A stretch of 64,000 nucleotides of DNA, from positions 489,541 to 553,540 of the forward strand of contig NZ_JAEQNB010000002.1 of the NCBI RefSeq assembly GCF_016722965.1, read 5' to 3'. The position numbers and the translations under genes were made by a program. The notes under the pieces were generated by a model, which was given only the letters and a program-made list of their open reading frames with translations, did no database searches and was not told the origin of the DNA. Below are positions 58,983-62,468 of this stretch, piece after piece; position 1 is the stretch's first letter; each line of letters begins with the position of its first letter. Origin of the DNA: Tumebacillus amylolyticus. Lineage in GTDB: Bacteria > Bacillota > Bacilli > Tumebacillales > Tumebacillaceae.

Positions 58983-59019
58983 CCTTACTTATGATATGGC
59001 TCACCGTATCGCTCTAAGT
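58983..59019. repeat. Copy B of conserved element (extended form CCTTACTTAT-N-TCACCGTATCGCTCTAAG), followed by plus-oriented hairpin 59033-59056
   Basis: 19-mer identical to copy A; extended 35-nt similarity to copy C. Confidence 0.45.
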
Positions 59020-59096
59020 TAGAAACGTGAGTCTGCTTGCCCTTTGGGCAGGCTCCTTTTTGTGTTTTCAGAGAGCACACCATATACACGATTAAA

Positions 59097-59951
59097 TCAT
59101 ATCCGATCGGAATAACACATTTTTACAGATGACTTTTCATTTGTATATTGGCTTAAAAGAATTTTAATAAACTCCAACCTACCGACCAGCATTTGTTTAA
59201 TTTCTATTTTATCAACATCAGGAGCGTTGAGCTTTTTATCTATACAAGTATACAATATCTCAATATACATCTTTGAAAGCAATAGCAAATCAAATGTTTT
59301 CTCTTCGCAAGAAGCCCCTGACCGCATTCTTACCCCGATCCCGTTTTCACCAATTTTCAAGTAGTTCTTAGTTACCTCGAAATTTATGTGAGTCTCTTCG
59401 GAATACATGCCGTAGAGTTTGGCATAATCACCATGTATCTCCTTTATGAAACCAACCGTTGATGCTGGCTTCGTCTTCTTAATGAGCTCCATATCTTTAT
59501 CAAAAATGTAATATGCCCAACATATCTGTTCGTAAATCACTCTGTACACCGCTGAAACTTCGATAAAAAATCCCTGTTTAAGCAATGTTACAGCACTCAT
59601 GAAACTAGAGGTTAATCTCGTATAGGCAAATAAAAAAGTCATATGCTCTACTTTGTCAGTCAGTGTAGCAACCATTTTCAGTTCCTGCTGAACGCTCTGT
59701 ACAACCTTAACAACTGAGTCCTGAATGAAATCAACTCTACCTAAAGCCACCTGATCGGAAAAGCTTTCAATGCACATTTTATCCATTACGATTTTCATGT
59801 TCTCAAACGTGAAGTTTTTATCTATATACGCCTGAATCGCTGCAGCTATATGCATTCGAAACTTTGGCGAACTATTTGTAGGAATTGCATAGCTCAAATC
59901 ACAAAAAAGATATGGTTTCAGTTGATAACCCGAGTCCTCTGGCTTGTTCAT
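59097..59951 (-). CDS. Hypothetical protein (284 aa), unit bounded by repeat copies B and C
   Basis: AT-rich ORF, no recognised domain. Confidence 0.5.
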   Translation of the reverse strand: MNKPEDSGYQLKPYLFCDLSYAIPTNSSPKFRMHIAAAIQAYIDKNFTFENMKIVMDKMCIESFSDQVALGRVDFIQDSVVKVVQSVQQELKMVATLTDKVEHMTFLFAYTRLTSSFMSAVTLLKQGFFIEVSAVYRVIYEQICWAYYIFDKDMELIKKTKPASTVGFIKEIHGDYAKLYGMYSEETHINFEVTKNYLKIGENGIGVRMRSGASCEEKTFDLLLLSKMYIEILYTCIDKKLNAPDVDKIEIKQMLVGRLEFIKILLSQYTNEKSSVKMCYSDRI

Positions 59952-60005
59952 CTTACTTTCACCTCGAAATTTAATCTGGAATGAGAACGACCATACTTCA
60001 TCGTT

Positions 60006-60041
60006 CCTTACTTATTATAAGACTCAGCGTATCGCTCTAAG
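60006..60041. repeat. Copy C of conserved element (CCTTACTTATtataagaCTCAGCGTATCGCTCTAAG), followed by hairpin GCCCCCTAGTTTGAGGGGGC
   Basis: 17/18 identity to core of copies A/B plus shared 5' extension with copy B. Confidence 0.45.
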
Positions 60042-60100
60042 CCCCCTAGTTTGAGGGGGCTTATTCCTTTGCTCTAGAACATGAAAGATCGTAATATACT

Positions 60101-61219
60101 TCAAGCCTGAATCTGAATAATTCGTTTAGATAATTGTTGCAAAAACTCTGGCGGTATCTTTGAAGAACGACATACATATTCGGCAATAAGAAGGGAGAAC
60201 TTAGCAGCCTGCAAGTTTTCTGAAGCTAATACTTTAGCCCATTCATACGGTTGAGGCGCAATATACTCAAATGCAATTTCCCTTAAAATCATTGGGACTT
60301 TACATATGTCATAAGGTGATTCCAAACACTGCCTAACCAACTGAATAAACATATCCCACTCAGGTAAGCTAAGAGTTGGCTCATTTTCGTAGCCACCACC
60401 ATTTCCTATCCTCGAATACAATGAATTAATAAAAGTGTAACTCTCTCTACCACCCCAAATAAGAACTTTTAATTCATCCGATAGTTGTTTTTTTGTTTCT
60501 GGGAGGAGATATTGATTAAAAACATTAGCAACAACTTCACTCAAAGCCACACTGAAAAGAGATATTAAATCTGATACTAACGTCAAATGAATAGGGTGAT
60601 CAGGGTTCACTTCATGCCTTATGTCTCTAATCACAGATAAGGTGTGCCTTAACTGCAATCTGTAGTCCCTTTTGTTCCAAAATCCGAATTTCACAAACTC
60701 AATCGCCGATTTCAATTTAGGGAACATCTTATGGATACCGTAATACTGATCCCATGATTCAATAACACATGTGGCACTGGATACCATGTCATAATCACGA
60801 CTTGTGCATCTAGCATATTTCTCGAAGTCATTACCCGACAAAACTGAGATATTTAATTCAGTTGCCGCTAACTTATGATCTTGTTCAATTTTTTTCTCCA
60901 ACAAGATTATTCCTTGTTGGCTATCTAACATCTTCATTATTCCATTCATCCAAAGTGCTCTTGTGATAGGAGATTGATTCTTCAGTGTTTTACAATCACC
61001 AACAATGACTTTTAACTTGCCGAAACTCTCTGGATACAAGCCCAAGACATCTATGTCTGTGATAAGTTTTGGACTGGTGGCAGTCCCATCTATGCAATAT
61101 ATATCTGCTTCTAGATGAGGATACCACCTTTTTGAAACAAAGTACTTCAATAGGGAAGACTTGAGAATCCTATCTTTTATTATTTTAGACACCCCCAAGG
61201 AAAATGTTATCCACTTCAA
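60101..61219 (-). CDS. Hypothetical protein (372 aa) with N-terminal PD-(D/E)xK-like nuclease motif
   Basis: ITDIDVLGL...(17 aa)...KVIVGDCKTLK fits hydrophobic-strand-D / hydrophobic-strand-DxK spacing of PD-(D/E)xK nucleases; AT-rich; 5' end overlapped by upstream gene. Confidence 0.5.
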   Translation of the reverse strand: MKWITFSLGVSKIIKDRILKSSLLKYFVSKRWYPHLEADIYCIDGTATSPKLITDIDVLGLYPESFGKLKVIVGDCKTLKNQSPITRALWMNGIMKMLDSQQGIILLEKKIEQDHKLAATELNISVLSGNDFEKYARCTSRDYDMVSSATCVIESWDQYYGIHKMFPKLKSAIEFVKFGFWNKRDYRLQLRHTLSVIRDIRHEVNPDHPIHLTLVSDLISLFSVALSEVVANVFNQYLLPETKKQLSDELKVLIWGGRESYTFINSLYSRIGNGGGYENEPTLSLPEWDMFIQLVRQCLESPYDICKVPMILREIAFEYIAPQPYEWAKVLASENLQAAKFSLLIAEYVCRSSKIPPEFLQQLSKRIIQIQA

Positions 61220-62468
61220 ATTGTTGTTCTTCGGTCAACTCTATATTCTCACGTTGGCGAAGATTCGCTGAACTAATAATTGACTCAATATACTGCTGAT
61301 TTTTCCCAAAGGCTAGGCGTGCATTTTCATCAATTTCTAGACCCTGAGTCTCTCTCGACTGTACGATATTAATTGCAATATCGAGGGCCTGCTTATTCTC
61401 GGGGGAGTCAATCAAATGAAATTGAAACCATCCACTAGTGGTAGGTACCAATTTCCCAACCCTCATCACAGTCAAGTTTCTATATTGTTCTAATGCTTCC
61501 GTGTTCGCTCTTAAGTAACCCACCGAACGAAGCGCGTTCAAAATTGCATAAGGGCTTCTGATTCTGTAGCGATTTGCAAGATATTGACCTTGCCTTACAG
61601 CCGCTACCAGAGCCATTGCCCTTTCATAAATCTCTCTTTTCGTTGGATTCAATCTGATATTTCCTGGGGTTGGTGTAAACAAAAAGTAGTTACTACCAGA
61701 ATGACTAGTTCGTATTTCGGGTGGCTTAACGGCACCATCATGCGCCAATCTGATCAACATATTAATTTCTTCATCAGTTAACTTGTACCCATTTATCTCC
61801 TTTGTCTCTTTGATTATTTTTAAAGGGATACCCTGAGCATTCTTAATCAAATTTAGAATACGTTGGACATTTGAGGCTCCTGACTTTGCAACTAGGTCAG
61901 CATATATTTCAGTGTTTTCTGAGAAAAAGACGGGGCTTAGTAATATTTCCTTACCTCTTGCTCTTTTAGAAATAATATAGTTACCTTCTTCTCCTACTTT
62001 TAAACCTCTAGTTAGCAATTTTTGATCAGCACCTAGCTGATTTGCTAACGCGTCCTTGGTAACAGGTGATTTTGTAAGTTTCTGTAGCATAATAAATGCC
62101 AGCTGTTCAGACTCATTCAACTTTTTGTTTTGAGCATATTCTCCAACGTGATCATAAAGATCTTCGTAGAATGGTACCGTTGGAATAACCGATTTTATTG
62201 TTTCACCTTCTTGAATAAGTCTTACAAACTCAATCTCACCAAGTGTCCTAATAAGTTGCTTCAACACGATTGAGTTTATCCCCAAATAGTGTATAGCCAC
62301 CAATTTTAGAATATCATACTCTACCCTTGGCAAACCCCTTAAATGTAAGGAAAGCCTAACCAACATACCAACCTCTGGTATTGTTTCAAACTCTGGAACG
62401 TCTTTGTTTCCCAATCCTAATGAAATATCATGACAACGAAGGGCTAACTCTTGCTTATTACTTATCAA
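61185..62468 (-). CDS. Hypothetical protein (427 aa), first gene of overlapping two-gene operon
   Basis: AT-rich ORF overlapping the downstream gene by 35 nt; no recognised domain. Confidence 0.5.
   Translation of the reverse strand: MISNKQELALRCHDISLGLGNKDVPEFETIPEVGMLVRLSLHLRGLPRVEYDILKLVAIHYLGINSIVLKQLIRTLGEIEFVRLIQEGETIKSVIPTVPFYEDLYDHVGEYAQNKKLNESEQLAFIMLQKLTKSPVTKDALANQLGADQKLLTRGLKVGEEGNYIISKRARGKEILLSPVFFSENTEIYADLVAKSGASNVQRILNLIKNAQGIPLKIIKETKEINGYKLTDEEINMLIRLAHDGAVKPPEIRTSHSGSNYFLFTPTPGNIRLNPTKREIYERAMALVAAVRQGQYLANRYRIRSPYAILNALRSVGYLRANTEALEQYRNLTVMRVGKLVPTTSGWFQFHLIDSPENKQALDIAINIVQSRETQGLEIDENARLAFGKNQQYIESIISSANLRQRENIELTEEQQFEVDNIFLGGV

Follow-up and report, generated by a model that had tools for sequence, protein, structure and literature searches.

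In this study, we analyzed a stretch of 64,000 nucleotides (nt) from the genome of Tumebacillus amylolyticus ITR2 (NCBI RefSeq contig NZ_JAEQNB010000002.1, positions 489,541 to 553,540), referred to below as the window, in which an AT-rich island contains two overlapping genes for proteins of 427 and 372 amino acids (aa). We found that these two genes form a pair that stays together wherever it occurs. The first protein is built of approximately four winged-helix domains, and the second is predicted to be a nuclease of the PD-(D/E)xK superfamily. Our preferred interpretation, to which we assign a probability of roughly 55%, is that the pair constitutes a mobile, methyltransferase-free two-component nuclease system that would serve as a restriction-like defence against the invading DNA of phages or plasmids.

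Pairing of a winged-helix protein with a predicted nuclease

We scanned one genome per species for 185,579 species and identified 97 relatives of the winged-helix protein, from which 80 loci were fetched. In all 77 loci with downstream DNA, the next gene after the winged-helix gene encoded a member of the nuclease family, and orphan copies of either gene were not seen in the 80 loci. The pairwise-identity matrices of the two families were correlated (r = 0.91), and none of 999 permutations in a Mantel test yielded a value as high, which points to co-evolution of the two proteins. These numbers answer the question, raised by an initial annotation made from the sequence alone, of whether the pair is conserved elsewhere. 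The modal junction between the two genes was an overlap of 4 nt (21 of 75 loci), and nearly all junctions fell between -47 and +31 nt. The sole locus in which the genes lie apart (L062, with a gap of 823 nt at 6046-6868) may have received an insertion between them. The same partner (hhalign probability of 98.8-99.2%) and the overlap were also kept in plasmid-borne actinobacterial versions, which have an identity of 22-25%. Clustering of approximately 960 neighbouring open reading frames (ORFs) from about 76 loci did not reveal a conserved third gene; the next commonest neighbour after the nuclease was an HsdR-like helicase, present in 6 of these loci. Likewise, no methyltransferase was conserved beside the pair in these loci, as would be expected of a type IV-like restriction system. 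Overall, the comparison of the loci supports the view that the two genes form an obligate, translationally coupled and self-contained module.

The two ORFs, the overlap of 35 nt and the abrupt drop in composition described by the initial annotation were all found at the places given there, and the query pair matched the deposited genes JJB07_09660 and JJB07_09665 at 100%. The shared 35 nt (61185-61219) refer to the maximal ORFs. The nuclease gene probably starts at the GTG codon at position 61192, because the resulting N-terminus MSKIIKDR matches the start MFKIIKDK of the Bacillaceae homologues; this start would give a protein of 363 aa and an overlap of 8 nt with the upstream stop. The deposited models are N-terminally truncated, with 278 aa for JJB07_09660 (282 aa in RefSeq) and 360 aa for JJB07_09665, compared to family lengths of approximately 335-370 aa for the nuclease and 425-435 aa for the winged-helix protein. 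The annotated nuclease model lacks E37, D55, D57, D75 and K77, and with them the entire catalytic core.

An alignment of 53 homologues, which share 22-57% identity with the window protein, showed that E37, T54-D55, D57 and D75-C76-K77-T78 of the nuclease are invariant in all 53 sequences. The sequence ITDIDVLGL is followed after 17 aa by GDCK, spanning D57 to D75, and distant actinobacterial versions retain TDLDVLG...DCKT. An AlphaFold model built from the same alignment (pLDDT 92.2, pTM 0.91) displays an alpha-beta-beta-beta-alpha-beta core, in which beta1 carries E37, beta2 carries D55 and D57, and beta3 carries D75-x-K77. With this core fold, an acidic residue on beta2 and a (D/E)xK motif, the 372-aa protein is a predicted member of the PD-(D/E)xK superfamily. 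The proposal of such a core in the initial annotation is borne out by the predicted fold, which is that of a nuclease, and by the invariant catalytic residues. These two features also let us predict that the enzyme is catalytically competent.

Fold relatives of the nuclease were Can2 (scores of 11.6 and 10.7), VC1899 (10.1), AspBHI (9.8) and NucS (9.5), followed by FokI, N.BspD6I, Cdn1 and the Shedu protein SduA with scores of about 8. Foldseek recovered the same nuclease families, and a match over the whole chain was absent. The nuclease domain comprises the N-terminal 125 aa or so, while the C-terminal part of approximately 240 aa is all-helical and had no informative match. A relationship of this helical domain with the neighbouring DUF5677 protein described below was rejected (hhalign probability 0.2%). 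The UniRef label "DUF403 domain-containing" carried by the truncated nuclease was not adopted, as Pfam did not return a DUF403 match at E <= 1; a match to Mrr_cat in Pfam was not found either.

The winged-helix protein shows a mean column identity of 59% over 57 sequences from many phyla and is always the better conserved of the two partners in pairwise comparison. Its domains are closest to the winged helices of replication-licensing and initiator proteins, e.g., Cdt1 and ORC. When 1.84 billion representative proteins were searched exhaustively with a profile, just 412 clusters were returned, whose complete members are uniform in length (approximately 420-440 aa). For this reason, the family is small and compact and does not form an offshoot of any larger family already known.

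We did not find a match for the two proteins of the pair, or for a nearby 82-aa ORF, in Pfam, NCBIfam, PHROGs and PADLOC-DB 2.0. The E. coli homologues gave a single, non-significant match in PADLOC-DB 2.0 (PD-T4-9_C, E 0.0097). A profile search of PDB sequences picked up squalene synthase and the ribosomal protein S19, both by chance, and a comparison with HEC-01 to HEC-09 of Payne et al. showed these to be different proteins. On the basis of these comparisons, the pair is an apparently uncharacterised family set apart from the PADLOC 2.0 models, the HEC systems and the searched literature, the newest DefenseFinder models lying outside the comparison. The statement of the initial annotation that none of three proteins in the island resembles anything nameable holds for the pair, which has no family match, but not for the 284-aa protein next to it, which has a partial match to DUF5677.

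Distribution, mobility and genomic context

The pair is rare and patchily distributed. It was detected in 97 of the 185,579 species (approximately 0.05%), which belong to at least 15 phyla and include Bacillota, Bacteroidota, Actinomycetota, Acidobacteriota, Verrucomicrobiota, Planctomycetota, Cyanobacteriota, Chloroflexota, Armatimonadota, Spirochaetota, Gemmatimonadota, Myxococcota, Desulfobacterota and alpha-, beta- and gamma-Proteobacteria. Nine plasmids carry it. None of the sequenced phages does, and a search of 2.9 million viral contigs gave one doubtful match. The closest relatives of the Tumebacillus copy were found in low-GC Bacillaceae, an actinobacterial metagenome-assembled genome (MAG) and Bacteroidota. 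The fraction of guanine and cytosine (GC) is 0.37-0.40 across 59-63 kb of the window, compared to approximately 0.50-0.55 in the adjoining DNA and 0.50-0.60 in most of the window; for the region of the pair it is 37-39%, compared to approximately 55% for the host. This composition, together with the identity of the closest relatives, indicates that the AT-rich island was acquired horizontally. For a test of island insertion, we used the flanking metallo-beta-lactamase (MBL)-fold hydrolase, for which the best non-self match was at 58% in Paenibacillus, and a Tumebacillus orthologue for synteny was not found.

Among 5,426 complete E. coli genomes, 7 (0.13%) contain the pair, on an island of approximately 9.6 kb that splits ppdD. 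In strain 94-3024 (NZ_CP009106.2, 886251-911954; locus L084), the insertion leaves an 84-nt 5' fragment of ppdD. Besides the pair, whose proteins are deposited as WP_021293063.1 and WP_129560323.1, the island encodes a large serine recombinase and a small one of the resolvase type, along with three hypothetical proteins. Of the latter, two are without a family match, and the third (477 aa) has a weak partial match to ResIII. According to published work, small serine recombinases mark defence loci (PMC13552941). A gene for glutaminyl-tRNA synthetase lies directly upstream of the pair on the same strand in Polaromonas (L033), Kapabacteria (L065) and Undibacterium (L078), and may represent a recurrent insertion site. 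In B. spizizenii, the pair is located between a cluster of Rap/Phr and LXG-toxin genes and rlmCD, a site that in strain 168 is presumably occupied by yefBC and yeeABC.

Several neighbourhoods of the pair are of the defence type. In two MAGs (L019 and L020), the pair is placed between hsdS and hsdM of a type I restriction-modification (R-M) operon on the same strand, and in a third one (L010) it follows hsdS on the same strand on a contig that stops before any hsdM. These three MAGs are unrelated. Genes located inside R-M or Hma operons have repeatedly turned out to be defence systems, for example TgvAB (PMC11411939) and the systems HEC-02 to HEC-08 (doi 10.1101/2024.01.29.577857). Elsewhere, we observed genes for SIR2-Piwi (pAgo-like), DUF1016/YhcG and Mrr proteins, type IV restriction endonucleases, PbeA, mad2 of MADS, Schlafen AlbA_2 proteins, Schlafen helicases, MORC-like HATPase_c_3 proteins, tyrosine integrases and Mob relaxases next to the pair.

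Proposed function and alternative explanations

According to the interpretation as a restriction-like system, the winged-helix subunit would recognise a feature of foreign nucleic acid, for which modified bases, the ends of DNA and unusual structures are candidates, and would then recruit or license the nuclease subunit, which would cut. We infer the defence function itself from the genomic context; a physical complex of both proteins, DNA as the target, separate roles of the two subunits as sensor and effector, and anti-phage activity are likewise inferred. More tentatively, and with somewhat less than even confidence, we propose that the pair represents a new family of methyltransferase-free restriction or defence systems, in which a protein composed solely of four winged helices acts in trans as sensor or specificity subunit and licenses a PD-(D/E)xK nuclease equipped with a novel helical regulatory domain. 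In this reading, the unusual conservation of the presumed sensor across phyla suggests that it reads an invariant feature of the invader, which might be a class of modification, the ends of DNA or an intermediate of replication, rather than a fast-evolving phage protein.

The known systems closest to the pair include TgvAB, a two-protein, GmrSD-like type IV system of Vibrio cholerae VPI-2. It likewise consists of two co-required genes without a methyltransferase, it is inserted in a type I R-M operon, as the pair is in the three MAGs, and its nuclease polypeptide is separate from the presumed recognition subunit. However, TgvAB combines DUF262 with DUF1524 (HNH-type), whereas the pair combines a winged-helix array with a PD-(D/E)xK domain, so that the proteins are unrelated in sequence and fold. 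Dependence on modification has been shown for TgvAB, whereas it is conjecture for the pair. In the modification-dependent PD-(D/E)xK restriction enzymes of the MspJI/AspBHI family and Mrr, and in the Mrr-like AF1548, nuclease and DNA-recognition domain (SRA-like or winged-helix) are parts of one fused protein; in the pair, by contrast, the nuclease domain is N-terminal, it is followed by the unmatched helical domain, and the partner of 427 aa is a separate protein. The CRISPR ancillary nucleases Can2, Card1 and Cdn1 (CARF plus PD-(D/E)xK, DUF1887) differ in having a Rossmann-like CARF sensor domain, which the nuclease of the pair lacks; its domains come in the opposite order, its sequence does not match theirs, and the pair has neither a CRISPR nor a cyclase gene as a conserved neighbour. 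Shedu (SduA, DUF4263) is a single gene, Hachiman HamA is paired with a helicase, and the PADLOC models of both were unmatched. With KITE and tandem winged-helix proteins (ScpB/MukE/JetB, ESCRT-II Vps25, Cdt1), only single domains superpose, sequence similarity is lacking, and the pair is without an SMC or kleisin partner, which makes the resemblance one of architecture, not of homology.

A number of observations weigh against the interpretation as a defence system. The three window proteins are without a match in PADLOC-DB 2.0.0 at E <= 1 and thus without homology to a validated system, and a literature search with the E. coli and Tumebacillus accessions and with descriptive terms did not retrieve a paper on the pair. 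Many of its neighbours are housekeeping genes, e.g., glnS, gyrA, recA and that of an aldehyde dehydrogenase, and the defence neighbours named above are individual occurrences. For a sensor in a defence system, the winged-helix protein shows unusually high conservation, with a mean pairwise identity of 43% compared to 31% for the nuclease. Finally, the gene for the DNA-binding protein precedes that for the nuclease, with overlaps of 4 nt, as it does in type II toxin-antitoxin operons.

This operon layout leads to the alternative of a toxin-antitoxin, addiction or abortive-infection module, in which the nuclease would be a toxin restrained by the winged-helix protein, the latter autoregulating the operon. 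Such a module would stabilise its carrier element or kill the infected cell and would not directly restrict the DNA of the invader. The presence of the pair on plasmids and integrative islands, the strict co-inheritance of both genes and a RelE/Phd module adjoining the pair on a Mycolicibacterium plasmid are in line with this possibility. Known antitoxins, however, are small and labile; compared to the size of less than approximately 150 aa typical of type II systems, the upstream protein, with its 420-440 aa, four domains and high conservation, would be a far from typical antitoxin. Moreover, the lack of orphans in the 80 loci and the mostly chromosomal, defence-type contexts, including those within R-M operons, argue against it. 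We therefore regard this alternative as unlikely, although it overlaps with the interpretation as a defence system, since many abortive-infection defences resemble toxin-antitoxin modules.

The pair could also process the DNA of mobile elements, with a structure-specific nuclease and its loader taking part in recombination, resolution, replication initiation or partition. The nuclease fold is indeed shared with the repair endonuclease NucS, the winged helices are most like the licensing and initiator domains of Cdt1 and ORC, and integrases and serine recombinases often adjoin the pair. Against this, the pair was found in very different types of elements as well as in plain chromosomal contexts, its copies embedded in R-M operons are without a recombinase nearby, no recombinase, replication or partition gene is conservedly linked to it, and it is not accompanied by conserved DNA repeats at its flanks. 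As the pair moves alone, we consider a role in DNA processing quite improbable, and less probable than that of a toxin-antitoxin module.

A core host function in DNA repair, sporulation or metabolism, with the pair merely located in an AT-rich stretch, could be suspected from the neighbouring genes for a Spo0E-like phosphatase and a TPR protein, but is effectively refuted by the distribution of the pair, which reaches only about 0.05% of the species and 0.13% of the genomes of E. coli, has neighbourhoods that are unrelated between taxa, variable and rich in defence genes rather than forming the conserved metabolic or sporulation locus considered in the initial annotation, and in the high-GC Tumebacillus is closest to copies from low-GC Bacillaceae, an actinobacterial MAG and Bacteroidota.

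The AT-rich island and its repeat element

The features of the island and its surroundings are compiled in Table 1. At its left edge, the terminator reported by the initial annotation at 58455-58510 was confirmed; it belongs to the MBL-fold hydrolase gene, and its stem was found to be perfect. The 284-aa ORF is indeed flanked by two copies of a repeat (B and C) with a hairpin beside each.

Table 1 Features of the AT-rich island and of related sites in the window. Positions are those of the window.
Feature	Position	Strand	Remarks
427-aa ORF	61185-62468	minus	First gene of the pair; approximately four winged-helix domains
372-aa maximal ORF	60101-61219	minus	Predicted PD-(D/E)xK nuclease gene; second gene of the pair
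284-aa ORF	59097-59951	minus	Partial DUF5677 match; outside the conserved pair
82-aa ORF	58621-58869	minus	3' of repeat copy B
Terminator of MBL-fold hydrolase gene	58460-58474/58493-58507	plus	Perfect 15-bp stem; left island edge
Stem-loop	60038-60063		10-bp, GC-rich; directly after the nuclease stop; stem shares 4 nt with copy C
Stem-loop	59029-59055		After the stop of the DUF5677 gene; T-run follows on the plus strand
Repeat copy C	60006-60041	minus	CTTAGAGCGATACGCTGAGTCTTATAATAAGTAAGG; contains a TATAAT box; 54 nt upstream of the DUF5677 start
Repeat copy B	58983-59018	minus	CTTAGAGCGATACGGTGAGCCATATCATAAGTAAGG; 113 nt upstream of the 82-aa ORF
Repeat copy A	51318-51336	minus	19-nt core only; after a long stem-loop; outside the AT-rich island
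YfbR-like HD 5'-deoxynucleotidase gene	50578-51213	minus	Approximately 104 nt downstream of copy A

Copies B and C of the repeat are 36 nt long, direct and 89% identical, and the DUF5677 unit between them measures 1,023 bp. All three copies in the window share an 18-nt core, which reads CTTAGAGCGATACGnTGA on the minus strand. For a 14-nt core, we counted three exact matches compared to 0.28 expected from shuffled sequences. Copies B and C carry TATCAT or TATAAT 8 nt past the core, and AAGTAAGG comes next. A similar sequence, GTATTATAATAA, is located 31 nt upstream of the start of the pair itself, where the core is absent. A search of 50-64 kb against Rfam (E <= 1) gave nothing relevant for the repeat, and none of the consensus sequences for SigD, SigK, SigE, cre and LexA fitted it convincingly when compared by eye.

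The initial annotation had taken the repeat as the boundary of gene units. This part was not supported, as the repeat brackets the DUF5677 gene alone, is absent upstream of the pair and has its third copy 7.7 kb away outside the island. The suggestion of a defence cassette in the same annotation thus has to be divided: a mobile pair in defence-rich contexts was found, while repeat-delimited units were not. Nevertheless, the exact bracketing of one gene by two nearly identical copies, the hairpins adjoining them and the AT-rich, foreign-looking island could be taken to point to an attC- or att-like recombination site that delimits mobile gene cassettes. Apart from the position of the copies relative to the pair and to the YfbR-like HD nucleotidase gene, this is contradicted by their single orientation and their constant placement between hairpin and start codon, and by the TATCAT/TATAAT box 8 nt past the core in copies B and C. 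In addition, the element is not an imperfect palindrome, and a recombinase was not found among the ORFs examined in 50.5-64 kb (those of at least 50 aa within 56-64 kb). A site at every boundary and a recombinase, as they characterise integron- or att-bounded cassettes, are thus missing, and we regard a recombination site as decidedly unlikely.

Instead, the repeat most likely acts as a promoter or operator element, shared between genes and positioned behind terminators, not as a cassette boundary. We prefer this reading because every copy sits between a terminator-like stem-loop and a start codon: all three have the same orientation, directly follow such a stem-loop and precede a start codon by 54-113 nt. 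The genes downstream of the copies, namely those of the YfbR-like HD nucleotidase and the DUF5677 protein and the 82-aa ORF, suggest a small regulon.

The match of the 284-aa protein to DUF5677 (PF18928; E 1.8e-8, 35 bits compared to a cutoff of 27.1) covers residues 105-159 and positions 3-58 of the 166 positions of the profile, so that the protein is a partial and possibly divergent member. A DUF5677 protein has been chosen before as a recombinase-associated defence candidate and was not among the protective proteins (PMC12632615). A DUF5677 homologue was not found beside the pair in any of the 80 loci, and the gene is independent neighbouring cargo unrelated to the pair. The 82-aa ORF, a putative gene, gave no match in the PDB, and its exact sequence is absent from a collection of 15 billion proteins, so that gene calling may have passed it over.

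Upstream of the pair, a gap of approximately 700 nt (62470-63190) extends to a Spo0E-like gene. Its GC content is above that of the island, and it contains no convincing ORF; Rfam (E <= 1) and a blastn search against plasmids returned nothing for it. The gap could represent a decayed gene or an undescribed RNA. The small Spo0E-like ORF (63191-63409, plus strand) was recognised by eye and converges on the gene of a 194-aa TPR protein (63377-63961, minus strand; Pfam TPR_12, E 1.7e-12) with an overlap of approximately 33 nt. Both together form the right border of the island. Elsewhere in the window, we observed long diverged direct repeats with 78-84% identity (39820-40119/44296-44595 and 45266-45833/55586-56153), which point to paralogous gene blocks, one of them including a second DUF2975-type gene.

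If confirmed as a defence system, the pair would represent a new family, in which the fold of the effector is familiar and the architecture of a separate sensor with four winged helices is undescribed. The copies within type I R-M operons would add three more cases of candidate defence genes at such sites. The truncated gene models, in which the active site is cut from the nuclease, would hide the system from domain-based screens. As a compact and rare family that crosses phyla and includes natural alleles in E. coli and Bacillus, the pair is directly testable in standard hosts.

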